Source: Geotalea daltonii FRC-32
GTDB taxonomy: Bacteria > Desulfobacterota > Desulfuromonadia > Geobacterales > Geobacteraceae
Reading direction: 5' to 3'
NCBI RefSeq assembly: GCF_000022265.1
Contig: NC_011979.1
Coordinates: 690,001 to 722,000, forward strand
DNA: 32,000 nucleotides
The notes under the pieces are model-generated. The model searched no databases. It was not told the DNA's origin and saw only the letters and a program-made list of their open reading frames with translations. Made by a program: the position numbers and the translations under genes. Positions 8,889 through 32,000 of the stretch are shown here, in pieces. Each line of letters opens with the position of its first letter. Within the stretch, counting starts at the first letter, position 1.

Positions 8889-8890
8889 GG

Positions 8891-13789: not shown

Positions 13790-13793
13790 ACTG

Positions 13794-14949: not shown

Positions 14950-17685
14950 ATGAAAGTATCCATGCCTTCCGGTTCCGCCCATGGCTGGGGAATAGCCGGG
15001 GAATACCTGGCGAGGGAGATAATAAAACTGCCACCGGTCGATGGTGTTACGCTCCACTGTATCGGAGGGGTCGATCTCAAGCCTCTGGACCCCCAGGCCT
15101 GGGACAGGATCAACATCGGTTACACTTTTTTCGAGGACGATATCGAAGTGCTGCGCCATACCAGGCGGGCTGCCGCTGAGTGGGATCACATCGTTGCCGG
15201 TTCCAGCTGGTGCGAACAGCATCTGCGCATCGGCGGCATCAGAAATACCAGCACCATTCTTCAGGGGATCGACCCCGCCAATTTCTCCCCTTCTCCCCCA
15301 CGGCCCGATGACGGACGTTTCATCGTCTTCTCCGGCGGCAAGTTCGAGAGTCGCAAATCACAGGATATTGTCATTGCTGCCATGAAGATACTAATGGCCC
15401 GCCATTCCGATCTGTGGCTCTCCTGCGCCTGGTACAACCACTGGCCCTTTTCCATGGCCACCATGCAGGGCTCACGCTACATCAGCTATCGCCATCTTGA
15501 AGAGGACTGCATGGGCCTTTTACGCAGGACCCTGCAGGAAAACGGCCTTCCCATGGACCGAATCATCCTGCATCCCCTGTTGGATAACGCCCGGATGAGA
15601 AATGTCTATGTGGACACTGATATGGGGCTGTTCCCCAACCGTTGCGAGGGGGGGAATAACATGGTCATGTCAGAATACATGGCCTGCGGCAGGACAGCAG
15701 TCGCATCAGACGCCAGTGGCCAGGGAGACATAATTACCACAGAAAATGCGTTCCCCCTGACCAGCTACGAGCCGCTCCTTATCAGCCGCAGCGGGGTCCC
15801 TTCCGCCATCTGGTTTGAACCCTCCCTGGAGGAGGTGGTGGAAAAGCTGGGGTTTGCTTTGCTCAACAGGGGCGAAATACGTGCCAGGAGCATCCGTGCC
15901 GGAGAAGATTTGCAGCGCTTGCGCTGGGATAGAGCTGCCGAGCAGTTTCATGGCCTTGCCTGCAAACTTGCAGGAAAGGGCCGAGAGTCATTGACGGTCA
16001 GAGTGCATCAGGCATCGCTGGGAGAGCCTTTGACCGCAGACGACTATCTGCGGGAGGGTCGGGCACTTCTCGACAGCGGCAATCCGGCACTGGCCGAGGC
16101 ACGTTTGCTGAAGGCACGCGCTCTGAATCCATTCTCCGCAGAAGTTTACAATTGCCTGGCAGGCGCCATGGATGCACAGGAACGTCATCAGCAAGCGCTG
16201 GGCTACTACCAGAAGGCCCTTTCCCTGCTGCCTGACTCGGCAGTGATCAACTTCAACATGGGCAATACCATGAAAAAGCTGGAGAGGCCTATAGAGGCTA
16301 CAGCATATTACCGGGAGGCCCTGAAAACGGACCCCGATTTTGCCGAAGCCCATTATAATCTGGGGCTGGTTCTGCAGGGGCAGCGGCTTTTCGACCAGGC
16401 TCTGGATGAATACGAGCGGGCGCTGGCCCTGAGGCCGGCTCATGCCGGCACCCTGCATAACATGGGAGATATCTTGCAGGACCGTGGCCAAGTGGAACAG
16501 GCGGTTGCCTGCTATGACAAAGTGCTGGCACTGGATCCGCAACTGGCCAATACCCACAACTCCCTGGGCAATGCCCTTCTCTGCCAGGAAAAATATCCGG
16601 AGGCGATTGCCGCCTATGAGCGTGCCATGGCCATCGATCCTGACAATCCGATGATCCACAACAACCTTGGAGCCGCTTTCAAAGACAAAGGCGACCTGGA
16701 TCAGGCCATCGCCTGCCATCGCCGGGCCCTGGCGCTGGAGCCGGGGAATGCCGATGCCCACTGGAACCTGTCCCTGGCTTGCCTTATGAAAGGGGCGTTC
16801 ATGGAAGGCTGGCAGGGTTATGAATGGCGCTGGGAAAAGAGCATACCGGTGCCGCGCCGAGAGCTGCCGCTTCCTCTCTGGGACGGGGAGCCCTTGGGGG
16901 GCAAGAAGATCATTCTTGTCTCCGAACAGGGGGCCGGGGATGTTTTTCAATTTGTACGTTATGCCGCCTTGGTCGCAGGCAGGGGAGGTACTGTTCTGAT
17001 CGAATGTCAGAGTGCAGCCCTGAAGCCGGTCCTGGAACGGGTGCCGATGGTGAGGGAAGCCTTTGTCGCGGGAGAAACGCTGCCACAGGCTGATTGCTAT
17101 TTCCCCCTCATGAGTCTGCCGCTGCTGTTCGGCACCACACTGGAAAGCATTCCGGCAGACGTTCCATACTTGATCCTGGATCCGGCCCGCCTGGAGAGCT
17201 TCCAGCGAAGGATGGGGGGCGATGGTGGTCTTAAGGTGGGGATCGTCTGGGCCGGTAGACAGAACCTGGTGCGCAACCGCAAGCGGACCTGCGGTTTGGA
17301 GGTTTTTGCCCCCCTGGCCGAAATTCCAGGGGTCTTCGTCTACAGCCTGCAGATAGGCCCCGATGCAGACCAGGCTACTCCATGGGTAGCCCAGGGCAAG
17401 CTGGTCGACTTGACGCCGCACATAAGGGATTTTGCCGACACCGCCGCCCTCATATCCAATCTGGATCTTGTCGTCACCATCGATACTTCGGTTGCCCATC
17501 TGGCAGGGGCACTGGCCCGGCCGGTGTGGACCCTGCTCCACTATGCTCCCGACTGGCGTTGGATGCTCGAGCGCAGCGACAGCCCCTGGTACCCGACCAT
17601 GCGGCTCTTCCGACAAAAACAGCCGGGAGATTGGCAGGGGGTAATGGTGGAGGTGAAGAAGGCCCTGCAGGAGATGCTGCCTTGA
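14950..17685 (+). CDS. Three-module protein: N-terminal GT-B (GT4-like) glycosyltransferase, TPR array, C-terminal GT9 (heptosyltransferase-fold)-like domain
   Basis: GAGAGG SD present; 911 aa. The N-terminal module carries a GT4-like acidic motif (NRCEGGNNMVMSEYMACGRTAVAS). About 7 TPR units span roughly 16030-16800 (for example AEAHYNLGLVLQGQRLFDQALDEYERALALRP). The C-terminal module has EQGAGDVFQFVRYAALVAGRGG...PLMSLPLLFG...KVGIVWAGRQN...DLVVTIDTSVAHLAGALARPVWTLL...SPWYPTMRLFRQ, typical of the GT9 fold. Confidence 0.8.
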   Translation: MKVSMPSGSAHGWGIAGEYLAREIIKLPPVDGVTLHCIGGVDLKPLDPQAWDRINIGYTFFEDDIEVLRHTRRAAAEWDHIVAGSSWCEQHLRIGGIRNTSTILQGIDPANFSPSPPRPDDGRFIVFSGGKFESRKSQDIVIAAMKILMARHSDLWLSCAWYNHWPFSMATMQGSRYISYRHLEEDCMGLLRRTLQENGLPMDRIILHPLLDNARMRNVYVDTDMGLFPNRCEGGNNMVMSEYMACGRTAVASDASGQGDIITTENAFPLTSYEPLLISRSGVPSAIWFEPSLEEVVEKLGFALLNRGEIRARSIRAGEDLQRLRWDRAAEQFHGLACKLAGKGRESLTVRVHQASLGEPLTADDYLREGRALLDSGNPALAEARLLKARALNPFSAEVYNCLAGAMDAQERHQQALGYYQKALSLLPDSAVINFNMGNTMKKLERPIEATAYYREALKTDPDFAEAHYNLGLVLQGQRLFDQALDEYERALALRPAHAGTLHNMGDILQDRGQVEQAVACYDKVLALDPQLANTHNSLGNALLCQEKYPEAIAAYERAMAIDPDNPMIHNNLGAAFKDKGDLDQAIACHRRALALEPGNADAHWNLSLACLMKGAFMEGWQGYEWRWEKSIPVPRRELPLPLWDGEPLGGKKIILVSEQGAGDVFQFVRYAALVAGRGGTVLIECQSAALKPVLERVPMVREAFVAGETLPQADCYFPLMSLPLLFGTTLESIPADVPYLILDPARLESFQRRMGGDGGLKVGIVWAGRQNLVRNRKRTCGLEVFAPLAEIPGVFVYSLQIGPDADQATPWVAQGKLVDLTPHIRDFADTAALISNLDLVVTIDTSVAHLAGALARPVWTLLHYAPDWRWMLERSDSPWYPTMRLFRQKQPGDWQGVMVEVKKALQEMLP

Positions 17686-20066
17686 CCAGTGCCGAAGACT
17701 TTTACCGTTCGGGCAATGCCAACGCCACCCGAGGAGATTACGACGGGGCCATTGCCGCCTATCTGCAGGCGCTGCAGCTTGCTCCACGGCAGCCTGCAGT
17801 TCTCAATAACCTGGGTCTCGCCTATGTTGAGAGTGGACGCCTTGATGAGGCCAAGGTCATCTTCGAACGATTCATCGCCCTGGACCCGGAAAACGCCGAG
17901 CCGTGGAACAACCTGGCCGTTGTCGTGCAGATGGCTGGAGACCTGGAGACGGCGACGGAGCTTTTCCGCAAGGCCCTTGCCCTCAATCCACAGTATGCCG
18001 AGGCTTGGTACAACCTGGGCTTTGCCCTGGAAGAACAGCGGAACTGGTCGGATGCCATAACCTGCAACCGGAGGGCGATTCTTGTCCGTACCGATTATGC
18101 TGAGGCACACTTCAACCTGGCGCTGCTGCATCTCCTCACCGGGAAATTTCACGAGGGCTGGCAGGAATACGAGTGGCGCTGGGTGACCAAGGGCTTCAGT
18201 ACCCCCAGGAGACATTTCGCCCAGCCCCAGTGGGATGGCAGCCCTTTTCCTGGCCGGACGCTGCTGGTCCATATGGAACAGGGCTTTGGCGACATAATTC
18301 AATTCATTCGTTACGTACCCATGGTTGCAGGTCGTGGAGGAGGGGTCATTGTGGCTGGCCCTCCCGAGTTGAGGGGATTGCTGGCAAGCGTGGACGGGGT
18401 GGACAGGGTGCTGGTCGACGGCGATACCTGGCCCGAATTTCACCTGCATATACCCTTGATGTCGCTGCCGCTGGTTCTGGGGACTGAACTGGAGACTATT
18501 CCGGGGCAAGTGCCCTACCTGCAGCCTGAACAGCAGAAGGTGAAGGATTGGGCGCTACGGCTTGAGAGTGATCGTGGATTCAAGGTGGGACTGGTCTGGT
18601 CGGGCCGGCTGAATACGGAGAAAAACCGCCGCCGTGCCTGTCCTCTGGAGTACTTTGCATCCCTGTTCGGCATCGCCGGGATCAGCTGGTATACGCTGCA
18701 GATGGGGGAAGGAAGAGAGCAGCTGGAAACGGTGCCTTTCGGCGGCCAGATCAGGGATCTGACTTCCCTGATTAAGGACTTTGGTGATACAGCCGCGTTC
18801 ATTGCCAATCTGGACCTGATCATATCCATCGATACCTCGGTATGTCATTTGGCCGGAGCTTTGGGAAAGGAGGTGTGGACACTGCTTTGCCGGTCTGCTG
18901 ACTGGCGCTGGCTCCTGGATCGCAACGACAGTCCCTGGTATCCGGCCATGCGCTTGTTCCGTCAGGAGCAGACGGGGGACTGGTCATCGGTCATGGCGCG
19001 GGTGGAGGACGCTCTTCAAGAGTGCGCCGCTCCCCGTCTGAAACTCTACTTCTACCGTTCGGGGATTGATTATTTGCTGCCCCCTTTGCTCCATGCAATG
19101 AAAATCCCCCTGCTCTATGACGATCCCCAGGGGCGGCAGGAGGTTGAGGGCACCCGTTACGATGTGCTGAGCATCTGGCAGGAAGATGAACTGGGCAAGC
19201 CTGTCTCACCATGCCGGGATAGCTATGATGAGGTCGATTCACCTGCAGATGCAGATTTCATCGTATTCCCCGAGCGGATCGACGAGCTGCTGGAGAATTT
19301 CGGCGGGGAGGGTACGGCTCGCTTTCTTCACCAGCTTCCCCATTTTGCCACCCACGAGGAGAAGCATGTCTTTCTGACCGTTCACGACAACAGTGATCCG
19401 TTGGGCATCAAATCGGTCATCTTCAGGACCAGTGCCTCTGCCTTCAATGCCGACCCTTGTACCTACGTTTTCCCTTACCGCACTGAGGACTTTAGCCGCT
19501 ACCTCCACTACGACCTTGCCCGCATGGATTATCATACCGGTTTTATAGGTTTTACCGGCTCCAGTCCAATACGTAGCCTCCTCATGGACAGCATAATGAG
19601 GGAGAAACGCCTGGTCAGCTATCTGGACACAAGCGAGCGCTTCTACGGCCATTTCCCGGAGAACGAGTTACCCCGCCGAAGGGCACGGTTCCTGGAATAT
19701 ATGGCCCGGTCCCTTACGGTACTCTGCCCCCGCGGCACAGGAGAAAATACCTTCCGTTTTTTCGAAGCCATGTCCATGGGACGGATCCCGGTTCTTGTGG
19801 GTGATGGCTGTATCCTGCCATTTGCTTCCCATATTGACTATGACGCCTTCATCATGAGAATTCCTGAGCAGGATGTATACCGGGCCGGTCAGCTGCTTTA
19901 CGAGTGGATATCGCGACAGAGCGAGACTGAGCTCCTTGGCCGCTGTCGCCGGGCCAGACAGGTCTGGGAAAAGTATTGCCGCTATTCCAGGATCAGCCCC
20001 ATGCTGCTGGGCATGTTGCAGCGGCATAAACAACGTCTTGTCAAAGATGAAAGAAAAAAAATGTAA
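17682..20066 (+). CDS. Three-module protein: TPR array, GT9-like domain (paralog of the upstream gene), C-terminal exostosin/GT47-like domain
   Basis: The start is uncertain. The only start-like codon before the first TPR is TTG 17682, which forms a TTGA overlap with the upstream stop and has an AGGAGA SD 8 nt upstream. The GT9-like part is EQGFGDIIQFIRYVPMVAGRGG...PLMSLPLVLG...KVGLVWSGRLN...DLIISIDTSVCHLAGALGKEVWTLL...SPWYPAMRLFRQ. The exostosin-like motif is YMARSLTVLCPRGTGENTFRFFEAMSMGRIPVLVGDGCILPFASHIDYDAF. Confidence 0.75.
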   Translation: MTSAEDFYRSGNANATRGDYDGAIAAYLQALQLAPRQPAVLNNLGLAYVESGRLDEAKVIFERFIALDPENAEPWNNLAVVVQMAGDLETATELFRKALALNPQYAEAWYNLGFALEEQRNWSDAITCNRRAILVRTDYAEAHFNLALLHLLTGKFHEGWQEYEWRWVTKGFSTPRRHFAQPQWDGSPFPGRTLLVHMEQGFGDIIQFIRYVPMVAGRGGGVIVAGPPELRGLLASVDGVDRVLVDGDTWPEFHLHIPLMSLPLVLGTELETIPGQVPYLQPEQQKVKDWALRLESDRGFKVGLVWSGRLNTEKNRRRACPLEYFASLFGIAGISWYTLQMGEGREQLETVPFGGQIRDLTSLIKDFGDTAAFIANLDLIISIDTSVCHLAGALGKEVWTLLCRSADWRWLLDRNDSPWYPAMRLFRQEQTGDWSSVMARVEDALQECAAPRLKLYFYRSGIDYLLPPLLHAMKIPLLYDDPQGRQEVEGTRYDVLSIWQEDELGKPVSPCRDSYDEVDSPADADFIVFPERIDELLENFGGEGTARFLHQLPHFATHEEKHVFLTVHDNSDPLGIKSVIFRTSASAFNADPCTYVFPYRTEDFSRYLHYDLARMDYHTGFIGFTGSSPIRSLLMDSIMREKRLVSYLDTSERFYGHFPENELPRRRARFLEYMARSLTVLCPRGTGENTFRFFEAMSMGRIPVLVGDGCILPFASHIDYDAFIMRIPEQDVYRAGQLLYEWISRQSETELLGRCRRARQVWEKYCRYSRISPMLLGMLQRHKQRLVKDERKKM

Positions 20067-20247
20067 GCAGGTGATTTTTCTCCTCAAGTTACCCGACCCA
20101 ACACCGAAGAGATTTCTAAATGCAGAATGTGAGACCGGTCACCGGGGCCACGAAGAATCGTGAGCCTCGACTGCATCAACGGCAAGCCGGGTAACCGGCG
20201 CAACAATCGGCAAGAATGCCGAAAAAACCTAGAAAAGGAGAATCACC

Positions 20248-21063
20248 ATGGCTATCAACGACGTATCATTGACCGCAGGCATGAGAAGTAATCTTCTTAC
20301 CATGCAGAAAACTTCCGATCTTCTCAACCGTACCCAGGACCGTCTCTCTTCAGGCAAAAAAGTTAACTCCGCACTCGACAATCCGACCAACTACTTTGCT
20401 GCCCAGAGCTATTCACAGCGCGCCGGCGACCTCGATGCCCGTAAAGACGGTATGAGCGAGGCAGTTCAGCAGGTAAAAGCCGCCAACGCAGGTATTACAG
20501 CTATCACAAGCCTGATTGAGTCCGCCAAAGGTCTTGCAACTTCGGCTCTTTCCACTTCCAACACGACAACCCGCGCCAGCTTGGCTGGCCAGTACGATAC
20601 GTTACGTCAACAGATCGACAAACTGGCCTCCGACTCCTCCTATGGCGGAAAGAACTTGCTGCAAAACCAGAATATCACCGTCAACTTCAATGAAGACGCA
20701 ACTTCAACGCTGTCAGTTTCCGGGTTCAGCGCCAACTCTACGGGCCTTGCCATGAGCGCAAACTCAAACAGCTGGTCCGCCGATACCGATATCAGCAGCG
20801 ACTCCGGCAAGATGGATTCGGCTATCACGACCCTGCGGTCCAAAACCCAGACCCTGTCGGCTAACCTGAACATCATTACTACCCGCCAGGATTTCACCAG
20901 CAGCATGATCAACACCTTGAGCACCGGTGCGGATAACCTGACCCTGGCCGATATGAACCAGGAAGGCGCCAACATGCTGATGCTGCAGACCCGTCAGTCT
21001 TTGGGTACCACAGCCCTGAGCCTTTCTTCTCAGGCAGCACAGTCAATACTCCGGTTGTTCTAA
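20248..21063 (+). CDS. fliC: Flagellin, small (271 aa) Caulobacter/alphaproteobacterial-like type
   Basis: AAGGAG SD present. N-terminus MAINDVSLTAGMRSNLLTMQKTSDLLNRTQDRLSSGKKVNSALDN. C-terminus MNQEGANMLMLQTRQSLGTTALSLSSQAAQSILRLF. A short Ser/Thr-rich central segment takes the place of a large variable domain. Confidence 0.9.
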   Translation: MAINDVSLTAGMRSNLLTMQKTSDLLNRTQDRLSSGKKVNSALDNPTNYFAAQSYSQRAGDLDARKDGMSEAVQQVKAANAGITAITSLIESAKGLATSALSTSNTTTRASLAGQYDTLRQQIDKLASDSSYGGKNLLQNQNITVNFNEDATSTLSVSGFSANSTGLAMSANSNSWSADTDISSDSGKMDSAITTLRSKTQTLSANLNIITTRQDFTSSMINTLSTGADNLTLADMNQEGANMLMLQTRQSLGTTALSLSSQAAQSILRLF

Positions 21064-21080
21064 TAATAACGGCAGAATCG

Positions 21081-21116
21081 GGTGGAGGGGAGAATTTCCC
21101 TCCACCTCTTTTTTTT
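21081..21116 (+). terminator. Strong rho-independent terminator after the flagellin gene
   Basis: Perfect 9 bp GC-rich stem: GGTGGAGGG (21081-21089) pairs with CCCTCCACC (21098-21106). The loop is 8 nt, followed by TCTTTTTTTT (21107-21116). Confidence 0.8.
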
Positions 21117-21129
21117 AGGGGGTGACTCC

Positions 21130-21807
21130 ATGGCCATACAACCCATAAACAATGACCCTGTGCTGTCAAATTTGACCCGCACAACGGCTACAGGTCAAAC
21201 AGTTGACGCACAAAACGGAATGCTGAAGAAAAACAATGCTGCGGGGGATTCCGTGGCATTTGTTGCTTCAGGAGAGGCAAAATCGGAGTTCGCCCGGATC
21301 AACTCCACCAAGGAAGCTATTGCTGTAGCGGCCAGGGCCATTCATGCCGCTGATGAGGTGATGGATGCCGTCGGCAAGAACCTGTCAAAAATGAAGGAGA
21401 GCCTGGAAACAATCGTCAAGAACTATCCCCCCTTTCCCCATGGCAGTGATGAGCGGATCAAACTCCTGATGAGCTATAACTCCCTGCGCAAGCAGATCGA
21501 CGATCTGACAATGCCGCCACCGCCACCCGATGGCACGGAGTATGCTAAAATAGTGGGTGACCCGGCTATTGCCGGTACCAGTGGCATCAACGTCACCAAC
21601 GAGAAGGGGGACCCGGTGAAGATCAATGCACAGGAAGTGCATACCGGTCCCACTGGTTTGGACCTCCCGATACTGCCGGACATTCCCGGAGACGATGCCA
21701 CAGATGATCAGATCTATGAAGCCTTGGGCAAGCTGGACACGGCAGTTAAGACCCTTTACGAGAGACAGTCGGGACTTGCAGCGGATGCGCAGAAACTGCT
21801 GGCCTAG
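21130..21807 (+). CDS. Hypothetical protein, divergent truncated flagellin-like (D1-type helices and proline-rich insert, no C-terminal D0)
   Basis: Start placed at ATG 21130; the track start 21082 is a GTG inside the terminator stem. The protein is 225 aa. Segments align by eye with the adjacent flagellin. LLMSYNSLRKQIDDLT matches LAGQYDTLRQQIDKLA, both at aa 112-127, with 8/16 identical. GKLDTAVKTLYERQSGLAAD matches GKMDSAITTLRSKTQTLSAN with 8/20 identical. The N-termini share MAI...SNL. A central PPPPP stretch is present. Confidence 0.55.
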   Translation: MAIQPINNDPVLSNLTRTTATGQTVDAQNGMLKKNNAAGDSVAFVASGEAKSEFARINSTKEAIAVAARAIHAADEVMDAVGKNLSKMKESLETIVKNYPPFPHGSDERIKLLMSYNSLRKQIDDLTMPPPPPDGTEYAKIVGDPAIAGTSGINVTNEKGDPVKINAQEVHTGPTGLDLPILPDIPGDDATDDQIYEALGKLDTAVKTLYERQSGLAADAQKLLA

Positions 21808-21831
21808 CCCCCGACACGGATACGGACTGCG

Positions 21832-22221
21832 ATGGCACTGAAAATTTCCCTGAAACCCAATGAACGCATGATCATCGGCGGCGCCGTTATCAGGAATGGC
21901 GGCAAGGCCAGTGAGTTCCATGTGGAAAACAAGGTACCGATTCTTCGGGAGAAGGACATCCTGGGAGAGCAGGACGCCACCACCCCTTGCCGAAACCTGT
22001 ACCTGGTCATCCAGCTCATGTATATCGATGAAGTAAACCTATCCACTTACAACAATACGTATTGGGAACTGGTGAAAGCTCTTGTCGATGCTGCTCCCAG
22101 CATGACCCCGACCCTGGACAGCATCAGCGAATGCATTGTCGGCGGGAACTATTATCAGGCACTGAAACTGACACGAGACCTAATTGACTACGAAGAGGAG
22201 CTTATCAGACATGCTGGCTAA
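21832..22221 (+). CDS. flbT: Flagellin translational repressor FlbT
   Basis: MALKISLKPNERMIIGGAVIRNGGKASEFHVENKVPILREKDIL...TPCRNLYLVIQLMYIDE...YYQALKLTRDLIDYEEE closely parallels Caulobacter FlbT as I recall it (MPLKLSLKPGEK..NGAV..N....L.NK..VLREKDI...YYKAL.L.R.LI.YE). Confidence 0.85.
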   Translation: MALKISLKPNERMIIGGAVIRNGGKASEFHVENKVPILREKDILGEQDATTPCRNLYLVIQLMYIDEVNLSTYNNTYWELVKALVDAAPSMTPTLDSISECIVGGNYYQALKLTRDLIDYEEELIRHAG

Positions 22222-22597
22222 CCAGATCAAGGAATACGCGAACATTCAGAAGGAAGCATTGACCGGCCGTGAACTTGAAGCGTCAGTCCTTACCAGGGCA
22301 GCGCAGATGCTGAAGCATTGTCAGGACAACTGGAATGCGCCCGATCGGGAAAAAAAGCTGCAGGAAGCCCTCAAGTTCAACCAGAAGATCTGGAGCTTCT
22401 TTCAGGCAGAACTTTCGGTTCCGGATAACCCGCTGCCGAAAAAGCTGCGGGAAGATATCCTCAGTCTCAGTCTTTTCGTGGACAAACGGATTTTCGAGAT
22501 AATTGCCTTTCCGGAATCGGAAAAATTGACCATAGTGATCGACATCAACATGAATATCGCCGCCGGCCTGAGAACAGGTCCCGGTGATGACATATGA
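22211..22597 (+). CDS. flaF: Flagellar regulator/flagellin chaperone FlaF
   Basis: Start placed at ATG 22211, after a GAGGAG SD, with an 11 nt overlap with flbT; the track start 22184 is TTG. FlaF-like features are GRELEASVLTRAAQML and NQKIWSFFQAELSVPDNPLPKKLREDILSLSLFVDKR...IDINMNIAAGL. Confidence 0.8.
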   Translation: MLANQIKEYANIQKEALTGRELEASVLTRAAQMLKHCQDNWNAPDREKKLQEALKFNQKIWSFFQAELSVPDNPLPKKLREDILSLSLFVDKRIFEIIAFPESEKLTIVIDINMNIAAGLRTGPGDDI

Positions 22598-23457: not shown

Positions 23458-25313
23458 TTCCTGCACCACTTCAGCCACATCCGGCGATATGCATCCTCCA
23501 GCAGAGCGACGAACCTGGGTGCATCCATCAGGGGCGAACTCTGCAACTCGTGTCGAAGATTGCTTCGAACCTGCGCCAATCTTACCGGGTCGGCAGCCAG
23601 GTCAAGCACGATCTCCATATACTCTTCCTCTGACGTGGCAATCCATTCACGATGGCCGGCATTGGCAAGCAGACTTATTGCCTGCCGCTCGGCAAAGGTC
23701 ACGCCGCTCATTGCCACCACAGGTACTCCCATCCACAATGCCTCACAGGTGGTCGTCCCGCCGGGAAAAGGGAACGTGTCCAGGGCTATGTCCACAAGAC
23801 TATACTCGCGCAGGGTTTCCATATGGGAAGAGTGGCCCCGCAGCATAATTCTTCCCGGATCGATGCCTGCGTGGGTAAATCGGTCTTGAAAGGTTCTGGC
23901 GCATCCGGGATCGTCGAATAGGCGGTTTTTGAGGAGCAGCCTGCTGTCTCGCAGTGTGTGAAGGATTTTCGCCCAAAGTGTGATAACCCGCTGATTTATT
24001 TTGGCGACATTGTTGAAACAGCCCAAGGTGATGGAGCCGTTTTGTTGCATGGGGAGGATGCTGACCTCCGGCGTGGCGATCACGGGACTGAAACAATAGC
24101 GGGTTTCGGGCAGCCTTAACGGTTCCTCGGAGAATAGTTGCGGCAGCTTTTCCGGCGAGGTTATCTCATCTGTGATCAAATAATCGATCGTATCAAGCCC
24201 GCTCGTATTGGGATAGCCGATAAACTCCACCTGGATTGGAGCAGGCTTGCGGGCAAAGACCAGCAGGCGGTGGCCGGAGGTGTGCCCCGCCAGGTCCACG
24301 AGAATATCGATGCCGTCCTCGCGGATCAACTCTGCCACCATGGCGTCGGACATGCCGTAAATGTTTCGCCACTGATCGGCCAGGGACATGGTGTGGTCCG
24401 TGATCCGGTCCGGCGTCCCCACATTGGCATAGCAGTGAATTTCAAAATTTTCGCGCCCGTGAGCTGCGAGCACCGGTTCAATGAAGTAGGCAACGGCGTG
24501 GAGCCTGAAATCAGCTGAAACATACCCGATTTTCAATCGTCTGTTCGGGTCCGCCCGGTTGCCATGGAGTTTTATTTGATTTTTCAGTGGGGTAGCGAAT
24601 TTTGTTGTGAATCTACGGTGTTCGTCATAAAGCTGGCTTGCATCGACAGTGGGGGAAAAGGCCATGGCAATGAGCAGATTGTCAAAGGCGCCCATGTTGT
24701 CAGGCTCACAGGAGAGGGCTTTTCTATAGGCCGTTACTGCTGCTTCAGCATCCCCCATGGACAGCAGGGTGTTGCCCAGGTTGAAATATGCGGCGGCACA
24801 TTCGGGATGCGCCTCGATAATTTCTTCAAACAGAGCTGCAGCATCGCTAAAGCTGAGCAGAAGTCTGAGGACGATGCCCAGATTCACCTTTGCCGTCAGG
24901 TAGTCCGGATCCAGTGCCAATGCCTGTCTGAAATACCCTGCCGCTTCTTCAAGTCTTCCCTGGTTTCTGCACAGGGAACCCAGGTTGTTGAGTGCTTGAG
25001 AAAAACCTGGCTCCAGGGTAAGCGCCTGCCGGTAAAGCGTTTCGGCGTCGGCAGTTTTTCCCTGGTTGCAGAGTAAATTGGCCAGGTGGAAGAATCCCTG
25101 GGCATGGGGGGTATGGGCAACGATCTGGCGGAAGCATGTTTCAGCCCTGGTGGTATCACCCCTATGGGCGAGGATGACACCCAGGCTTAACAGGGCATCC
25201 AGGTGCTCCGGCGATTCGGCCAGGACCTGTTCCAGTAGCTCCTCTGCTTCAGCAATCATCCCCTTGTTTATGAGGATCCGGATATACTTGTAAGTCGTCT
25301 CTGCAGTAGTCAT
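23448..25313 (-). CDS. TPR + GT41 (O-GlcNAc transferase/SPINDLY-like) glycosyltransferase
   Basis: Start placed at ATG 25313 (ATGA overlap with the upstream gene's stop); the track start 25388 is GTG. An N-terminal TPR array is present. The C-terminal part RLKIGYVSADFRLHAVAYFIEP...FEIHCYAN...DILVDLAGHTSGHRLLVFARKPAPIQVEFIGYPNTSGLDTIDYLITDEITSP strongly resembles the OGT catalytic domain. Confidence 0.85.
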   Translation of the reverse strand: MTTAETTYKYIRILINKGMIAEAEELLEQVLAESPEHLDALLSLGVILAHRGDTTRAETCFRQIVAHTPHAQGFFHLANLLCNQGKTADAETLYRQALTLEPGFSQALNNLGSLCRNQGRLEEAAGYFRQALALDPDYLTAKVNLGIVLRLLLSFSDAAALFEEIIEAHPECAAAYFNLGNTLLSMGDAEAAVTAYRKALSCEPDNMGAFDNLLIAMAFSPTVDASQLYDEHRRFTTKFATPLKNQIKLHGNRADPNRRLKIGYVSADFRLHAVAYFIEPVLAAHGRENFEIHCYANVGTPDRITDHTMSLADQWRNIYGMSDAMVAELIREDGIDILVDLAGHTSGHRLLVFARKPAPIQVEFIGYPNTSGLDTIDYLITDEITSPEKLPQLFSEEPLRLPETRYCFSPVIATPEVSILPMQQNGSITLGCFNNVAKINQRVITLWAKILHTLRDSRLLLKNRLFDDPGCARTFQDRFTHAGIDPGRIMLRGHSSHMETLREYSLVDIALDTFPFPGGTTTCEALWMGVPVVAMSGVTFAERQAISLLANAGHREWIATSEEEYMEIVLDLAADPVRLAQVRSNLRHELQSSPLMDAPRFVALLEDAYRRMWLKWCRNQA

Positions 25314-27385
25314 TTGCCCGACCTTTGAACCCAAAACTGATACATGCCGCCGAAAGTGTCCGGGTTCTCCTGTTCGAAAAGATGCCACAGGTGCAGTGAA
25401 TTATGGGTGCTGTCATCGGGAAATCGGTTGCTGTAGCGTAACAGCGTCTGGGCGTCCAGTTGAAAACCAAGGAAAGCCAGGTCGAAATCCTTGATAATTG
25501 CAGCAATCTGCAGCAGATCAAAGGTATGTTCCTGGACATGGAAAATCAGATCACGGCAAGCGCTGGTGCTGTAAAAATCCCTGCTCGCCATTACCTTGCG
25601 GATCAGCTGGTCATCGGTAAACGACGCTATCTCCCTGCGGCAGCGGCGGATATCGTCTGGAGCAGGGTGATAATTCCGCCCGGCTATGAAATTCCGTGCT
25701 GCAGCAATATGTCTTCGGGCGATGGTGCTGTAAAGGGCCACACCCATCAATCCCCCCGGCTTCAATCGGCGCAACAGCTTTCGCCATCCTTCTTCAGGGG
25801 AGGCCATATGGTGGAGAACACCGCTGCATTCAATAATGTCAAAATCCTGCTCCGTGTGGTCAAGGTTCAGGATGTCCCCTTGGACGAAGGTGATGTTGGC
25901 ACACCCGAATTCCTCCGCCTTGCGCATGGCATAGGCAAGACTGGCCTTGCTCAGATCCATGGCCGTTACCCTGGCCCCTTCAAATCGGGCAGCAGTCGTG
26001 ATGGCGTGACGCCCAGTACCACAACCGGCGATAAGAATCGCCGGTTGTTGATTATTCAGGATTTGGGGAATTACCAGATGGGGGAAAAGTTTCGAGAATA
26101 CCTTGTCCATGGGAAGGGGCACAGGCAGCGCCATACTGAACCAGCGTGGATAAGGATTTTCTTCATACTGGTCCTGTACCTGCTGCGAGAGAGCATCTAT
26201 GGGCGAGATAGCAGGGATCATGCACTTCATTCGCTGCTCTGCCAGCGGCTCGACCACTTGGTGCAAGAACACTTTTTGCAGCATCTCATGATGATCTTCT
26301 GCGTCGACAAGGCTGGTAAGCAACTCGCATTCAGGCAGCCGGTGCAATGGCTGATAGCAGGCCAGGAGCACCAGCCGTAACAGGGGGATCTTGCTCCCGG
26401 AGCCAATGCAGTCACAAATAAAGACCTGTAACTGCCGCACAGCCGTCTGCTCCTCCCCGGTGACATAAAAGACGTATTCGTTGCTGAAACAGAGCTGTGC
26501 CAGGCTGCAAAGGAACGGGATGGACCCGGCTAAGTCTGCTGGATAACAAGTATCGGTTGGATGGGATAAAAGCAGGTTTTTTCGCAGCACGGTGAGGAGT
26601 TGTTCCAACTCCCAGTTGCAGAGAAGGGATGACTCCATCACCCGCAGGAAGAGGTCGTCGTCGAGCAGCGACCAGAGCTTTCCCTCAAACATTAGCGTCA
26701 AGAGCTGCTGGTTATCGGCTGCCGCCGATAGCAGCGTTGAAACCTCTGGTCTGGCAAGGATAAGATGGGTGGCAATGTCTGCCAGGGACTCATTGGGTGA
26801 CTGCTCGTATGCTGTGAGCAGGTCTTTTTCCAGGGCGGCCAGCTGCTTGCCGGAAAGGGAACTCTGGCAGTGGGCCAAAAGGCTCTGCCAGAGTCGGACA
26901 TTTCCCGGACCATAGTGCACTGCGGTGCAAAAGGCTCCAATGGCCTTCTGCTGCTCCCCCCTGGCCAGATATATTTCTCCCAGCGTCTGGTGCAAATCGA
27001 CAAGATCGGGCGTCAGTTCCAAGGCTTGTATCACAGTGTTCTCAGCCCCCGCTAGATCTTTAACCGTCAGGAGATGCCTTGCCTGTTCCGCCAGGGCAGA
27101 TACCAGATTGTTCCGAAATTCAGGACGACCGGGAGAGAGTTTTGCGGCGCATTCATAATGTGCTATGGCTTCTTCCCTGCGTCCAAGGCATTGCAGGATC
27201 AAGCCGAGCTTGTCATGTGCCGCTGCAAATCCGGGGGCAATATCCAACGCTGCTGCCAGGCTTTTCGCAGCTTCGTCAAGCAGGGCTTTCTCCATCAACA
27301 TGGTGGCAAGACTGAACCGGACTAAGGCCGTAGCCGGCAGATTATCGGTTTCTTCAGAGGCAGTATTCAAGCCTGTTTCTTGCAA
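25310..27385 (-). CDS. TPR + uncharacterised middle region + class I SAM-dependent methyltransferase fusion
   Basis: The start is uncertain. Candidates are TTG 27385 (GGGGA SD 5 nt upstream), TTG 27370 (TTGA overlap with the upstream stop) and ATG 27301. TPR units occupy the N-terminal roughly 200 aa. The methyltransferase motif I is ILIAGCGTGRHAITTA...VTAMDLS...FVQGDILNL...FDIIECSGVLHHM. Confidence 0.8.
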   Translation of the reverse strand: MQETGLNTASEETDNLPATALVRFSLATMLMEKALLDEAAKSLAAALDIAPGFAAAHDKLGLILQCLGRREEAIAHYECAAKLSPGRPEFRNNLVSALAEQARHLLTVKDLAGAENTVIQALELTPDLVDLHQTLGEIYLARGEQQKAIGAFCTAVHYGPGNVRLWQSLLAHCQSSLSGKQLAALEKDLLTAYEQSPNESLADIATHLILARPEVSTLLSAAADNQQLLTLMFEGKLWSLLDDDLFLRVMESSLLCNWELEQLLTVLRKNLLLSHPTDTCYPADLAGSIPFLCSLAQLCFSNEYVFYVTGEEQTAVRQLQVFICDCIGSGSKIPLLRLVLLACYQPLHRLPECELLTSLVDAEDHHEMLQKVFLHQVVEPLAEQRMKCMIPAISPIDALSQQVQDQYEENPYPRWFSMALPVPLPMDKVFSKLFPHLVIPQILNNQQPAILIAGCGTGRHAITTAARFEGARVTAMDLSKASLAYAMRKAEEFGCANITFVQGDILNLDHTEQDFDIIECSGVLHHMASPEEGWRKLLRRLKPGGLMGVALYSTIARRHIAAARNFIAGRNYHPAPDDIRRCRREIASFTDDQLIRKVMASRDFYSTSACRDLIFHVQEHTFDLLQIAAIIKDFDLAFLGFQLDAQTLLRYSNRFPDDSTHNSLHLWHLFEQENPDTFGGMYQFWVQRSGK

Positions 27386-27990
27386 ATGAATCCCCAGTAT
27401 TCATCCGGTCCAAGACCGGTGGTAAAATTGAAATTCACCTGTTCCAGGGGCTGCAGCCCATTGCGGCCGAGCAGAGAAACCCACATGCCGCGGTTGAGGA
27501 CGCTGTAGTGATTCTGGTTGTTCTCGTGGTGGCAGGCCGTTTCAGGCGCAGGCACCTCAAGGTAAAGAAGGCCGCCGGCTTTCAGCACCCGGGCAAATTC
27601 GGCCAGGGTGAAATGGGGGAAAATGCTGTGCTCGATCACATGCCGGGCCCAGATGAGGTCGAAAGTTTCCGGCAGATAGTCCAAAAACGACTGCTCCATT
27701 TTGGTTACCTGATGGCCCTTTTTCCTGCACGCCTCGATATCTTCATCATTAAGGGTGATGCCCAAGGGAGCGAAACCTTTTTCGCGGAAAATGTCCAGTG
27801 CCGGTCCCTGGCCGCACCCCACATCGAGGATGGCCGCCCCCTGCTGAAGCGGGTATTTCGCCAATAGATTGTTCAGCTGCTGGTTGGTTATTTCGGTATG
27901 GAGCTGCGTCGGCAGTTCCGGGTAGGTATCATTTTCCAGTTTTTTCAGAAAATCGTGCAGTCGGGCAAAGCCCGCGAATGACAATTCCAT
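27367..27990 (-). CDS. Class I SAM-dependent methyltransferase (207 aa)
   Basis: The ATG directly follows the upstream TAA (TAAATG). Motif I is ILDVGCGQGPALDIF; post-I and motif II are FDLIWARHVIEHS; motif III is LKAGGLLYLEVP. Confidence 0.85.
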   Translation of the reverse strand: MELSFAGFARLHDFLKKLENDTYPELPTQLHTEITNQQLNNLLAKYPLQQGAAILDVGCGQGPALDIFREKGFAPLGITLNDEDIEACRKKGHQVTKMEQSFLDYLPETFDLIWARHVIEHSIFPHFTLAEFARVLKAGGLLYLEVPAPETACHHENNQNHYSVLNRGMWVSLLGRNGLQPLEQVNFNFTTGLGPDEYWGFICKKQA

Positions 27991-30900
27991 TTATGCCGCC
28001 CTCTGTGTGCATTCTGTTAATAAATGGGTGATTTCCGCTGTGACCGCGCCATTGTCGATGGCTGCCTCCAGCAGCCGGCGACTCCAGTCGAATCTCCCCT
28101 GGGTATAAAGCACCTTGGCGTGCTGAAAGAGGAAATCGCCGCAGTCGTAGTTCATCTCCCTGACCTGCTGCAATCGCTGCCTTCCTTTGTCCTGTTCTCC
28201 CAAACAGAAATGGATGGAGGCAAGGAGTGCGATAGCCGGAGGATAATCCGGGTGGTTGACCAGCAGGTTTTCCAGGAGAGTGGCGACGGAGACGATCTCG
28301 CCTGAATAGAGCTCGCAACAGCCGTAGTTGAACACCGCTTCTTTCGCGTGGGGATCGAGCGCTACCGCCCTTTTCGATGAGCAGAGCGCCTCGCCATACC
28401 TGCCTTGGCAAAGGTAGGCATGTCCCATGTTGAAGTGGGCATTGGCGGAGTCAGGTTCCTGTTCCACCACCTGTCCCCAGAGTTCCAGGGCTTCGTCATG
28501 TTTGCCAAGTTCTGCAGCCTGAATGGCAAGTTCCGTCAGCGCCTGCACATCTCTGGGATGCTCGGCAAGTTTCTTCTTGCCCAGTTGATAATAAAACTCC
28601 CATTTGCCCCGCAGTTTCTCCTTGTCCAGCTTGCCGTAATGATGAATTGACAGATCTGCTTCTTTAACAGGCAGGCCGGCCCTTTCCAATGACGGTTCCA
28701 CCAGCTCATGGACGGCGTTTTCGAACCTGATGCGGCTGTCGTTCGGGAAGATGCGGACAATGAAATTGGGTTGGAAACCGATACCCGCTTCTTCTTCGGG
28801 ATATCTTCCGTCGTGGGAAAGAAATCCTTTGCTACCGGCCAGACAAGTATAGTTCTTCTGGCACACCGTATATCCGGCCGGCGTGCCAGAGGCCAGGTGC
28901 CGCAGCAACCCATGGTCCCGGCAGGAAATGACCTCGTCGGCGTCCATAACCAGAACCCATGTGCCTGACGCCTTGGCAAGGGACTCGTTCCTGGCCAGGG
29001 CAAAGCTTCCCGGCCAGGGAAGATCGAAGACAGAGGCGCCGAAGGCCCGGGCAATGTCTTTGGTCCGGTCGGTGGAGCCGGTGTCGACAACGATCATTTC
29101 TGAAACGGCAGGTTTGACGCTGGCCAGTGCCCGGGCCAGGTGCGGCGCTTCGTCTTTGGCGATCATGCACAGGGAAATACTGCCCGGCGCGCCTGCCTGA
29201 GGCCGTTCCTTCTGCCCATCCAGCGTTTTCCTCACGTGCAGTGCTGCGTCGATAATGCCGTCGTCGGCGCCGAAGCCGACCATGGCCTGTTCGATCTCGG
29301 CCATGGCCTCTTCATATTTCTGCTGGTTCAAGAGCAGGTCGATCAATTTGAAGGTGATCAATCTGCTGTGGGGGAAGATTGCCCGTGCTTCACGGAAGAC
29401 TGCTTCCCCGCGGCTGAACTGCTCGCTGGCGGAGATGGCGGAGTGGTAACGTTCCATGGCATCGCTTACCGTCGGGTTGAGCATGAAGCCCTTTTCCAGC
29501 AGCTCCAGTGCTTCGCCGTGTGCCTGGGCCGACCAGCGCAGCACACCAAGGTTGGTGCAGGCCTCGCCGAAACCGGGATCGGCTGCCATGGCACTTGTGA
29601 ACAGCTCCTCAGCCCTTGACCGGTCTCCGGCACGGAAGGCAAGCACTCCCTTCAGGTTGAGGGCCTGGGCAAAGGAACTCTCCAAGGCCAGGGCATTATC
29701 GGCGCAGCCCTCGGCTTCAGCAAGTTGCTCCAGCCCTTCTCGACAGACTCCTTCCATGACCAGGCTTTCCGCATCCCCGCCATGGCCGGGCATCTCCCTG
29801 ATGATAGCCAGGGCATCGGAGAACCGTTTTGCCTCAATGAGGAAAGAGGCCAGCAGCCGGTAGGGACGGCGGTCGGCAGGGGCGAATTTTATTCCTTCTT
29901 CGATGAGTACTTTTACCGCCTGGTCCAGGTCACCCTTGTGAAAGCTCTCCTCACCCTTGATCAGCGCGTTATGACTGGCGAGGCGGAAGGCTTCGCCCTT
30001 GTCCATTTTGGTCATGTCCCATTTGCGGTCGAATACCTTGCGGTTAACGGCCATGGCTGCATTGAAGTCGATCCTGTTCCCCTCGAAAGTCCGGCTGCCG
30101 TGGTGATGGATGAAGACGTCGCCGGCGATGACCGACTGCAGCCCGGCCAGGGAGGCGCGCAGGCAGAAATCGTCGTCCTCGAAGTTGCCCAGGGCAAAGG
30201 CTTCATCCAGCATCCCCACCTGGTCCGCCAGGCTGCGGCGGAAGAGCATGCAGAAACCGACCACCAGCTTGACCGGGATGCGCCGGTGACGATGGGCGGA
30301 GCGGAAACCGGCGGCGAAGGCTTGCATTTCGTCCATGTTTGCATAGGGGACCGACAGCAGTTGCTGGGGACCGGCTATGTTGTTGGTCATGGGAGCGACG
30401 ATGCCGTCGGCGGAGGCTTCGAGACATTCCCGCATCCCGGTAAGCCATCCCTCCGTCACCACCACGTCGTTGTTGAGTAAAAGCAGGTATTCACCCTTGG
30501 CGGCAGCCATGCCCTGGTTGCACCCCTTGGCGAAGCCCAGGTTCTTCTTGTTCTCGATAAGCCTGTAGTTTTTGTGGCTTTTCATTTCCTGGCGAAGCCA
30601 TTTGACCGTGCCATCCTTGGAACCATTGTCGACGAAGATTATCTCGTGTTTTTCCGGCGTATGTTTCTGGATGCTTGACAGGCACTCACGGGTGTATTCC
30701 AGCTGATTCAAGGTGAGGATGATGATGGAGGTTAAGTGATCCTCCTTGGCGGCCACCTTTGCCTGTGCCGTTTTTTTCTCTTTCGCCGGCGGGAAGGATA
30801 CCGGTTTCGCCTGCCGGGCCTGTTGAGGCACGGCCCGCAGCAGGTACTGGAAATGCCTTCCTTCATCGGCCAGGGTGGAAACATCCAGCCCCGCCTCGGC

Positions 30901-32000
30901 AAGGGCTTTGGGGATCTGGGGGGGGACCTGCACATCGTTGAGCACCGTTGCGCTCATGGTGGTAGGCGTAAAGCCTGCATTGCCGAAGAGTTCCATCACC
31001 CCCTGACGGGTAAAGAAGCGGAGATGGGTGCGGTCGAGGATGCCTTCATCGGCATAGTCCCATTTCCCTTCCAGGAGCCCCCTCACCACCGACCAGTGGC
31101 GGACGTTGGGGATACTGGCGACGATCTCACCCCCTGCTGCCAGTTTGCCTTTGGCGGCGACGAGAACGGCGGTGGGATCAACGAGGTGTTCCAACACATC
31201 GGCGAAAATGATGGTATCGAAATACCCATCGGGAAGGGTGGGTAAAATCTCCTCCACCGGTCCCGCGCAGACCTTGTCCAGCTTCTGTTCCGCCAGTTTC
31301 GCCGCCGCCGGCAGCATTTCGATTCCCCATACCTCCGCTTTCAGCTTTGCTTTCAGTTCGCCAGCCGTAGCGCCTGCGGCGCAGCCCACGTCAAGGATTC
31401 TCTTCGCCGCCGGATTCACCATTTCCTGCACTTCCGGTCGCGCAAAGCCATAGTAGGCAGCCGGCTTCTCCCCCATCCTGGCCAGGATCTCCTCACTGTC
31501 GGTATACATGCTGTATAGGTCCGAGCCGAACTTGTCCTTGAAGAGGTGATATTTTTCCACCAGGTGATCGGGATGGTCCCGCTCCTCGTCATAGCCCAGG
31601 TGGTAGGCGATGAACTCCCGGGCATAGCCCACCTTGCCGCCGTTTCTGCGCACCTGCTCGCACGCCTCCCAGTCGGTGGTGTATTTCCCGTCAAAGTATT
31701 TCCTTTTGATGCACTGCATCCAGGTGCCCACGTTGGCCAGGGTGATCTTGTCATTGTAAACGGTCTTCTCGCCGAGGATGACATCGGGCAGACTGGCCGG
31801 TTTGTTGACCGGATCGAGGGTCAGGCCGATGAGCCCCATCTCCGGGTACTCCCGGTGCAGGTCGAGCATCCGTTCCAGCCAGCATTTGCCCTGCAGGTCG
31901 GGGACGAGGATGTCCGGGTCGCTGACCACATACGGATCGGAGTTGGCCAGCTCGATGCCCCGCTGGAAGGCGACGGTGAAATAGTTGTCGTCGTTGAAAA
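27991..32000 (-). CDS. Giant multidomain protein (5' end outside the window): GT-A-like, SAM methyltransferase, GT2, TPR, GT2, TPR
   Basis: The frame stays open upstream of the track start (GTG 31929) to the window edge (...FNDDNYFTVAFQRGIELANSDPYVVSDPDILVP...). The methyltransferase domain lies at about 31105-31407 (ILDVGCAAGATAGEL...FDTIIFADVLEHLVDP). GT2 domain 1 lies at about 30070-30735 (SIIILTLNQLEYT...IIFVDNGSKDGT...LLLLNNDVVV...FEDDDFCLR). GT2 domain 2 lies at about 28630-29181 (ISLCMIAKDE...MIVVDTGSTDRT...WVLVMDADEV). TPR arrays lie between and after the GT2 domains. Confidence 0.85.
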   Translation of the reverse strand, partial: FNDDNYFTVAFQRGIELANSDPYVVSDPDILVPDLQGKCWLERMLDLHREYPEMGLIGLTLDPVNKPASLPDVILGEKTVYNDKITLANVGTWMQCIKRKYFDGKYTTDWEACEQVRRNGGKVGYAREFIAYHLGYDEERDHPDHLVEKYHLFKDKFGSDLYSMYTDSEEILARMGEKPAAYYGFARPEVQEMVNPAAKRILDVGCAAGATAGELKAKLKAEVWGIEMLPAAAKLAEQKLDKVCAGPVEEILPTLPDGYFDTIIFADVLEHLVDPTAVLVAAKGKLAAGGEIVASIPNVRHWSVVRGLLEGKWDYADEGILDRTHLRFFTRQGVMELFGNAGFTPTTMSATVLNDVQVPPQIPKALAEAGLDVSTLADEGRHFQYLLRAVPQQARQAKPVSFPPAKEKKTAQAKVAAKEDHLTSIIILTLNQLEYTRECLSSIQKHTPEKHEIIFVDNGSKDGTVKWLRQEMKSHKNYRLIENKKNLGFAKGCNQGMAAAKGEYLLLLNNDVVVTEGWLTGMRECLEASADGIVAPMTNNIAGPQQLLSVPYANMDEMQAFAAGFRSAHRHRRIPVKLVVGFCMLFRRSLADQVGMLDEAFALGNFEDDDFCLRASLAGLQSVIAGDVFIHHHGSRTFEGNRIDFNAAMAVNRKVFDRKWDMTKMDKGEAFRLASHNALIKGEESFHKGDLDQAVKVLIEEGIKFAPADRRPYRLLASFLIEAKRFSDALAIIREMPGHGGDAESLVMEGVCREGLEQLAEAEGCADNALALESSFAQALNLKGVLAFRAGDRSRAEELFTSAMAADPGFGEACTNLGVLRWSAQAHGEALELLEKGFMLNPTVSDAMERYHSAISASEQFSRGEAVFREARAIFPHSRLITFKLIDLLLNQQKYEEAMAEIEQAMVGFGADDGIIDAALHVRKTLDGQKERPQAGAPGSISLCMIAKDEAPHLARALASVKPAVSEMIVVDTGSTDRTKDIARAFGASVFDLPWPGSFALARNESLAKASGTWVLVMDADEVISCRDHGLLRHLASGTPAGYTVCQKNYTCLAGSKGFLSHDGRYPEEEAGIGFQPNFIVRIFPNDSRIRFENAVHELVEPSLERAGLPVKEADLSIHHYGKLDKEKLRGKWEFYYQLGKKKLAEHPRDVQALTELAIQAAELGKHDEALELWGQVVEQEPDSANAHFNMGHAYLCQGRYGEALCSSKRAVALDPHAKEAVFNYGCCELYSGEIVSVATLLENLLVNHPDYPPAIALLASIHFCLGEQDKGRQRLQQVREMNYDCGDFLFQHAKVLYTQGRFDWSRRLLEAAIDNGAVTAEITHLLTECTQRAA

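Follow-up and report, generated by a model that had tools for sequence, protein, structure and literature searches.

A dense cluster of genes for putative glycosylation enzymes surrounds the flagellin gene of Geotalea daltonii FRC-32. It lies in a 32,000-nt stretch of contig NC_011979.1 (positions 690,001 to 722,000; referred to below as the window, whose numbering is used throughout). From position 14950 to the window end at 32000, fliC, flbT and flaF are flanked on both sides by the genes of six multidomain proteins, which are designated here A, B, H, I, J and K. Together these proteins possess eight glycosyltransferase (GT) domains, three S-adenosylmethionine (SAM) methyltransferase domains and six tetratricopeptide repeat (TPR) arrays, as established with Pfam and follow-up tests; with E-values from 1e-12 to 1e-89, chance is ruled out for the domain calls. 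The original prediction, which was made from the sequence alone, had placed about eight GT, three methyltransferase and six TPR domains in six proteins around fliC, and every domain class was confirmed by Pfam and the follow-up tests at its predicted position, although the GT4-like call in A is weak. Its gene map also proved correct overall, except that K is cut by the window end, B starts with a TTG codon at 17682, the open reading frame (ORF) after fliC starts at 21127 and not at 21082, and one further gene, G, had been overlooked. We consider it likely that this island is a cytoplasmic flagellin-modification system of G. daltonii, responsible for O-glycosylation and methylation.

The fliC gene (20248-21063, plus strand) encodes a flagellin of 271 amino acids, which matches Pfam Flagellin_N and Flagellin_C and possesses D0 and D1 domains only. 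Ser and Thr account for 27% of its residues and are densest at residues 91-120 and 151-210. The most similar proteins are the Caulobacter flagellins FljM, FljN, FljK and FljL (273 amino acids), with an end-to-end alignment of residues 1-271 to residues 1-272 (E 7e-24). Further downstream on the same strand are flbT (21832-22221; Pfam FlbT, E 8e-46) and flaF (22184-22597; Pfam FlaF, E 8e-37; the ATG at 22211 may be its actual start). The gene between fliC and flbT, designated D (21127-21807, plus strand; 226 amino acids), belongs to no Pfam or NCBIfam family. Homologues of D are found in the same position in 15 of the 80 related loci described below; furthermore, Geomonas, Citrifermentans and Nitrospiraceae have unannotated genes for proteins of 161-247 amino acids there, among which the Citrifermentans gene alone gave a tblastn match to D. 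The protein has weak collinear similarity to the D1 region of flagellin (E 0.003) and may be an unrecognised component of the flagellar filament or of its regulation.

The gene for protein K is located on the minus strand and extends from 27991 to beyond 32000. Its frame contains no stop between 31929 and 32000 and is therefore open at the window end; judged from relatives of 1380-1430 amino acids, the more than 1335 residues encoded in the window are probably short of ~70-100 N-terminal ones. According to Pfam, K consists of a partial GT2 domain (31549-32000), a methyltransferase domain (30964-31443), a second GT2 domain (30085-30732), a TPR array (~29290-30012), a third, GmaR-like GT2 domain (28624-29178) and a second TPR array (~28060-28578), whose Pfam matches (residues ~1118-1290) follow the GmaR-like domain. 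The catalytic motifs, which are of the DxD type, do not vary among 14 relatives of K. The third GT domain (residues ~941-1125) aligns with GmaR (PDB 22ao) over residues 11-179 of the 204 residues of the chain (E 1e-25), and the acidic DADE motifs of the two proteins fall opposite each other ('vmdadev' opposite 'aidadec'). The same domain also matches the peptide S-glycosyltransferase SunS (E 1e-8).

GmaR of Listeria monocytogenes is a proven beta-O-GlcNAc transferase of flagellin. Next to its GT domain, on the C-terminal side, it has a TPR domain for which flagellin recognition has been proposed. It is a bifunctional protein that acts both as glycosyltransferase and as antirepressor. K shares with it a homologous GT-A domain with the acidic motif and the TPR array that comes next, and both proteins are soluble and encoded in a flagellar locus. 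However, the GmaR-like module makes up only the last third of K, which contains in addition two GT2 domains, a methyltransferase domain and another TPR array, whereas it possesses neither the linker nor the antirepressor domain of GmaR; a MogR-like gene was not found in the window. As K ends right after its TPR array, there is no room for an antirepressor domain, and K is a homologue of the catalytic module rather than an orthologue of GmaR.

Relatives of K with 40-50% identity are proteins of 1300-2300 amino acids in Geobacter sp. M21, Citrifermentans, Geomonas, Syntrophus, Nitrospirae, Desulfobacterales and others. A search with K returned 1354 significant matches, and a metagenome scan with its N-terminus revealed only distant relatives (42-47% identity). 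Some K relatives additionally carry radical-SAM or GT4 domains. Besides, radical-SAM/B12-binding or SPASM domains, either fused to GT2-TPR modules or located beside them, are present in K-family proteins and their neighbours (P0121, P0123, P0124, P0150, P0153, P0159 and P0168; L083, 433-4494; L085, 8282-9967). This suggests that the glycan may be subject to radical chemistry in some lineages of the K family.

The genomic context of K was compared in a set of 80 K-family loci with 10-kb flanks (one genome per species, G. daltonii itself not among them), using tblastn with the proteins of the window. In the 34 closest loci from other genomes, fliC, flbT or flaF was present in 23 cases, and in 20 of the 26 closest loci for which at least 15 kb of DNA was available. 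K is thus linked to flagellin genes in ~68% of its close relatives versus ~1% expected by chance for a random 20-kb segment, as we estimate for one or two flagellin loci per genome of 4-5 Mb. The linkage spans Geobacter relatives, Nitrospirae, Syntrophus, Desulfobacterales and other deltaproteobacterial metagenome-assembled genomes (MAGs). In Nitrospirota (Nitrospiraceae) and several deltaproteobacterial MAGs, K directly abuts flaF, so that the minimal conserved unit consists of K and fliC-D-flbT-flaF. In Geomonas, Citrifermentans and Pelobacter-like genomes, the genes are arranged according to the plan that is also seen in the G. daltonii window, i.e., one to four TPR-GT9-like genes, fliC, D, flbT, flaF, up to two TPR-GT41 genes, and K. 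Otherwise, the genomes differ in the number and kind of their modules: the GT4-like domain of A was found in three of the related loci and the GT47-like domain of B in two, and neither the middle region of I nor G was found in any. This mosaic module content is the pattern typical of glycosylation islands. Co-occurrence with fliC-flbT-flaF in relatives had been named in the original prediction as a test of its reading, and, indeed, K, GT41 and GT9-like genes are not routinely unlinked from flagellin in the related lineages. The 46 more distant K loci (Planctomycetota, Verrucomicrobiota, Firmicutes, others) are different in this respect, as flagellin-region genes are present in only one of them; taken overall, the TPR-GT9-like, TPR-GT41 and K-like families are not specific for flagellin.

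The second protein with a clear relationship to protein-modifying enzymes is H (23448-25313, minus strand; 621 amino acids). It combines an N-terminal TPR array (~24669-25301) with a GT41 catalytic domain of the SPINDLY/OGT type (~23451-24575), which matches Glyco_transf_41 (PF13844) with 198 bits at a cut-off of 25. In the PDB, this domain is matched by SPINDLY (E 1e-89), Thermobaculum OGT (3e-87) and human OGT (1e-48); the alignments with SPINDLY and with the Thermobaculum enzyme are full-length for the catalytic domain, and H resembles these proteins also in its N-terminal TPR array. It differs from them by the shortness of this array and by its bacterial flagellar context. Characterised members of GT41 act on proteins. 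The family is not exotic in bacteria: H gave 7613 significant matches among the 8000 candidates scored.

Upstream of H in the same orientation are the genes of two methyltransferases. Protein I (25310-27370, minus strand; 686 amino acids) contains a TPR array (~26861-27361) and a class I SAM methyltransferase domain (~25691-26083), which are separated by 260 amino acids (residues ~170-430; ~26081-26860); for this region, Pfam gave nothing up to E 10, and tblastn nothing in the related loci. Protein J (27367-27990, minus strand; 207 amino acids) is a class I SAM methyltransferase (Pfam Methyltransf_23, E 7e-19).

On the other side of fliC, protein A (14950-17685, plus strand; 911 amino acids) is composed of a GT4-like region (~14950-15999), a TPR array (~16009-16782; TPR_11, E 9e-50) and a GT9-like domain of the GT-B type (~16747-17682). 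The first of these assignments is weak: Glyco_trans_1_4 scored 26.9 bits at a cut-off of 27 and Glycos_transf_1 23.3 at a cut-off of 26.4, the match to PimA has an E-value of 0.025, and the sequence FPNRCEGGNNMVMSEYMACG appears, by eye, to resemble the EX7E region of GT4 enzymes. The GT9-like domain reached 26.6 bits with PF01075, i.e., it is above the gathering score of 22. A sequence search of the PDB with this domain gave no match. Its AlphaFold2 model (pLDDT 92.4, pTM 0.92) has its best PDB counterparts in WaaF, a Veillonella GT9 enzyme and WaaC (TM-score ~0.6), with TibC at ~0.5. The GT-B fold is therefore common to this domain and to the GT9 heptosyltransferases (WaaF, WaaC), including the protein heptosyltransferase TibC; however, the domain is only 12-17% identical to these enzymes and scores 24 bits with the NCBIfam heptosyltransferase I model, for which the cut-off is 185. 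Being fused to a TPR array, it is not an orthologue of the enzyme of the lipopolysaccharide (LPS) core, and by NCBIfam neither A nor B carries an LPS heptosyltransferase equivalog. A protein encoded on a 200-kb contig (P0241, 299 amino acids) is 94% identical to the GT9-like domain of A alone, which points to a close relative in which this domain forms a gene of its own or the gene has been called differently.

Protein B (17682-20066, plus strand; 794 amino acids) starts with TTG, which overlaps the stop codon of A (TTGA). Its TPR array (~17688-18176) is followed by a GT9-like domain (~18150-19091), which is 50% identical to that of A and, with 18 bits for PF01075, is under the cut-off, and by a GT47/exostosin-like domain (~19092-20063). 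The latter scored 47.2 bits with Exostosin_GT47 (PF03016; cut-off 33.4), the profile being matched in its C-terminal part only, and is also similar to EXTL3 (E 5e-6). No MAF domain (PF01973) was found by Pfam in any of the island proteins.

A seventh candidate enzyme is encoded by G (22672-23457, plus strand; 261 amino acids), which is located downstream of flaF and belongs to a family without a Pfam model. This family comprises 2892 representative clusters at E<=1e-3 and has an invariant motif, D96..D99 within MLTDVRDVxFQxDPF. In a few relatives of G, the protein also contains GT2, TPR or FkbM methyltransferase domains as fusions; PF03407 (nucleotide-diphospho-sugar transferase) is weakly matched by one member (6e-4). 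The family profile had no match in the PDB, and a single-sequence model of G was unusable (pLDDT 40). G may be a divergent, unclassified GT-A glycosyltransferase and a ninth transferase of the island.

The island consists of two units that are oriented towards each other: A-B-fliC / D-flbT-flaF-G is read from the plus strand, K-J-I-H from the minus strand. The genes A/B, J/I and I/H overlap by 4 nt and K and J abut, which implies two operons. Directly 3' of fliC, at 21080-21107 on the plus strand, there is a terminator-like hairpin with a 12-bp stem and a subsequent T run; except for this hairpin, scans for sigma-70 promoters and terminators gave counts not above those in shuffled controls. 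A sigma-54-type promoter-like site, TGGTATGGTAGTTGCT, is located at 14895-14910 (plus strand), 40 nt 5' of the start codon of A. It is a consensus match only, being the sole one to TGGYAY-N5-TTGCW in the 32 kb, where ~0.08 are expected by chance. As flagellar genes of Geobacter are RpoN-dependent, a sigma-54-like site upstream of A would fit. A search for sigma-28 promoters gave nothing convincing 5' of fliC; its one near-match lies inside the PilZ gene described next, is at chance level and was rejected. Long opposite-strand ORFs (e.g., 15988-17787, minus strand) were discarded as well, as by-products of the G+C-rich coding sequence; the frames supported by Pfam account for the region.

The island is embedded in the same region as the flagellar gene cluster at positions 1-14700, in which profile searches identified a complete set of genes from flhA to motB: flhA (3' end), flhF, flhG and fliA; flgF, flgG, flgA, flgH, flgI and the rod-binding flgJ; flgN, flgK and flgL; and motA and motB. 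Next to motAB and divergent from A is a gene for a PilZN1-PilZ protein (13890-14696, minus strand), which may be a YcgR-like flagellar brake responding to cyclic di-GMP. A weak PilZ-family gene is likewise situated next to motAB in the Nitrospiraceae locus L085. Note also an ORF of 151 amino acids between flgL and motA (11864-12319, minus strand), which overlaps the motA start, has no family match and may be spurious.

Several lines of evidence bear on the function of the island. None of the proteins A, B, H, I, J and K contains a hydrophobic segment of membrane-helix strength, and profile searches found in the window no transporter, polymerase, ligase or initiating phosphoglycosyl (lipid-carrier) transferase; both observations fit the modification of a protein in the cytoplasm rather than the export of a polysaccharide. 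Precedents exist for TPR domains that bind flagellin. In Caulobacter, the TPR domain of FlmG, a TPR-GT-B protein, binds flagellin, and the enzyme glycosylates flagellins of the FljK/L/M/N type before their FlaF-dependent secretion; in Shewanella Maf-1, the TPR domain is the flagellin-binding determinant. Flagellin modification is likely because the island is part of a complete flagellar cluster, the flagellin is most similar to known FlmG substrates, the synteny of K with fliC-flbT-flaF is conserved, K possesses a module homologous to GmaR, H is a GT41 enzyme, membrane segments are lacking, and there is precedent for flagellin binding by TPR domains. On these grounds, the earlier proposal of a TPR-fused system for glycosylation and methylation of flagellin appears very probable.

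Other observations weigh against this interpretation. The distant K relatives in Planctomycetota, Verrucomicrobiota and Ignavibacteriota have no flagellin nearby, and some K relatives are named 'O-antigen biosynthesis protein' in their source annotations. The TPR-GT9-like family is very large and has a member in the cyanobacterium Anabaenopsis, which we take to be non-flagellated. None of the island proteins reached an NCBIfam equivalog cut-off, and neither Pfam nor NCBIfam revealed any gene for sugar-nucleotide synthesis in the window, including those of the NeuB/PseI/LegI type. Modification of the G. daltonii flagellin is, moreover, deduced here from genes.

The identities of the domains, the relationship of K to GmaR and of H to SPINDLY/OGT, the lack of membrane segments, the arrangement in operons and the conservation of synteny are observed; flagellin as the acceptor, the order of the steps proposed below, the donor sugars, and sugar or protein as the destination of the methyl groups are inferred. 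In the cytoplasm, before export through the flagellar type III apparatus, the TPR arrays of the soluble enzymes would dock onto newly synthesised flagellin, which is short, rich in Ser and Thr, of the Caulobacter type and controlled by FlbT/FlaF. K would be the conserved core enzyme: its C-terminal GmaR-type GT-A domain with the TPR array most likely places a sugar directly on Ser/Thr residues of the flagellin, and its two other GT2 domains and the methyltransferase domain would extend and methylate the glycan. H, with TPR array and GT41 domain, would be a second enzyme acting directly on the protein, with GlcNAc, fucose or some other sugar. A, B, I, J and perhaps G would be lineage-variable accessory modules that elaborate the glycan or modify further sites. 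This assignment of roles (initiation by the GmaR-like module of K, extension and methylation by its other domains, direct modification by H, accessory functions of A, B, I, J and G) is tentative, and we rate its chances as somewhat less than even.

It is about as likely as not that the enzymes visible in the window represent only the transferase and tailoring half of the system and that dedicated sugar-nucleotide genes are present just upstream of K, either for a nonulosonic acid pathway with a Maf-type transferase or for an amino-deoxy sugar. The glycan would then be made from an unusual, dedicated sugar. In Citrifermentans bremense, the region directly upstream of the K homologue encodes a GT2 and a GT1 glycosyltransferase, a methyltransferase, DegT, a Maf-type PF01973 protein, a NeuC-like epimerase, TylF, NeuB, a CTP-transferase and a radical-SAM protein. 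Here (locus L084), the genes for the Maf-type protein and NeuB (4546-5382 and 1597-2637) share an island with the K homologue and two TPR-GT41 genes, which shows that a flagellin island can hold machineries of the K type and of the Maf type side by side. In Geomonas sp. RF6, the genes before the K homologue are those for a dehydratase/epimerase, DegT, a hexapeptide acetyltransferase, a GFO/IDH/MocA oxidoreductase and an Asn-synthase-like protein, and a third genome has a dehydratase and DegT there. The corresponding position in G. daltonii falls just past the window end at 32000, beyond which K itself continues. On the other hand, in a Nitrospiraceae relative a radical-SAM/hexapeptide gene is all that precedes K, and the content of the island is mosaic between genomes. 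The original prediction was right in that the window contains no pse/leg/neu-type or Maf-type gene; its suggestion that common sugar nucleotides are the building blocks of the glycan is not supported by this absence, since relatives carry sugar-nucleotide genes upstream of K.

It is unlikely that the TPR-fused transferases act on other targets (other flagellar or surface proteins, or a polysaccharide) and that the fliC neighbourhood is merely a hot spot for island insertion. The breadth of the families would fit this explanation: the TPR-GT9-like and TPR-GT41 queries gave 7613-7997 significant matches among the 8000 candidates scored (compared with 1354 for K), such families are also present in non-flagellated organisms or away from flagellar genes, and multidomain proteins with GT, methyltransferase and TPR domains have been annotated as O-antigen enzymes as well. 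Against it stand the linkage of K to fliC-flbT-flaF across distantly related lineages, at ~68% of the close relatives versus ~1% expected, and the GmaR-homologous module in K; furthermore, the window contains none of the transporter, polymerase, ligase, initiating phosphoglycosyl transferase and membrane segments looked for. Finally, GmaR is bifunctional, TPR arrays are generic protein-binding scaffolds and the regulators flbT and flaF are adjacent, but a mainly regulatory or chaperone-like role of some modules, be it as GmaR-style antirepressors or as TPR scaffolds that hold flagellin for FlaF-dependent secretion, is very improbable, given that K has no antirepressor domain, that no MogR-like gene is present in the window and that the K family shows no variation in its catalytic DxD-type motifs.

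If the island serves flagellin modification, as we propose, its relationship to known systems can be described as follows. Proteins of the FlmG class possess an N-terminal TPR domain and a C-terminal GT-B domain that transfers pseudaminic acid (Pse) or legionaminic acid (Leg); they have been reported to be confined to Caulobacterales and to require a pathway for Pse or Leg. H, A and B share with FlmG, which is set beside them here by its description ('GT-B') only, the arrangement of a TPR array followed by GT-B in one soluble protein. The G. daltonii locus also shares the type of flagellin (271 amino acids) and the regulators FlbT and FlaF with the FlmG system, whereas it multiplies several GT families and carries no nonulosonic acid genes within the window. 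In the flagellin glycosylation islands of Enterobacteriaceae, GT41 (COG3914) fused to methyltransferase domains, GT2 and separate methyltransferases are encoded at the flagellin locus (De Maayer & Cowan 2016). In Pseudomonas aeruginosa PAO1 and Clostridioides difficile, multidomain transferases and methyltransferases build methylated flagellin glycans stepwise. All these islands have in common with that of G. daltonii the presence of GT2 or GT41 transferases together with methyltransferases at the flagellin locus. The G. daltonii island differs from them by the extensive TPR fusions, the GT9-like and GT47-like domains and the architecture of K, and also by its host lineage and by the context, which is fliC-flbT-flaF rather than fliC-fliA. 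With regard to the operational features that define such islands according to De Maayer & Cowan (2016), GT genes occupy the flagellin locus, where A, B, H and K with their eight GT domains directly adjoin fliC-flbT-flaF on both sides, and of the genes for sugar synthesis or modification, three methyltransferases are present and a sugar-nucleotide synthesis gene is absent from the window.

The system had been regarded as undescribed, a view that needs correction in the light of the catalogued GT41/GT2/methyltransferase islands of Enterobacteriaceae; besides, glycosylation enzymes were already noted at this location in Geobacter genomes (Aklujkar et al. 2012). A literature search retrieved no paper that characterises flagellin modification in Geobacter relatives or Nitrospirae, or the K family. 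Flagellin glycosylation islands are thus already known as a kind, and the G. daltonii version is an uncharacterised member of it, not a new category. It is nevertheless conceivable, though we hold it short of probable, that the K family constitutes a third major class of flagellin-modifying machinery beside Maf and FlmG. K would then be a single-polypeptide assembly line, which docks on flagellins of the FlbT/FlaF type via its two TPR arrays and, in cis, both assembles an oligosaccharide and methylates it, with TPR-GT41 and TPR-GT9-like proteins as swappable add-ons.

Much is known about the glycosylation of flagellin in pathogens and Caulobacter; Geobacter relatives and Nitrospirae are of importance for metal reduction and nutrient cycling. 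If K indeed both initiates and extends the glycan, it would be a compact, soluble, cytoplasmic device for multi-step protein glycosylation with built-in substrate recognition by TPR arrays, which would be of interest for glyco-engineering. The add-on TPR-fused transferases would then provide a natural series in which the combination of acceptor with donor specificity could be studied. Furthermore, the island would offer a testable link between FlbT/FlaF-controlled flagellin secretion and flagellin modification outside the Alphaproteobacteria.

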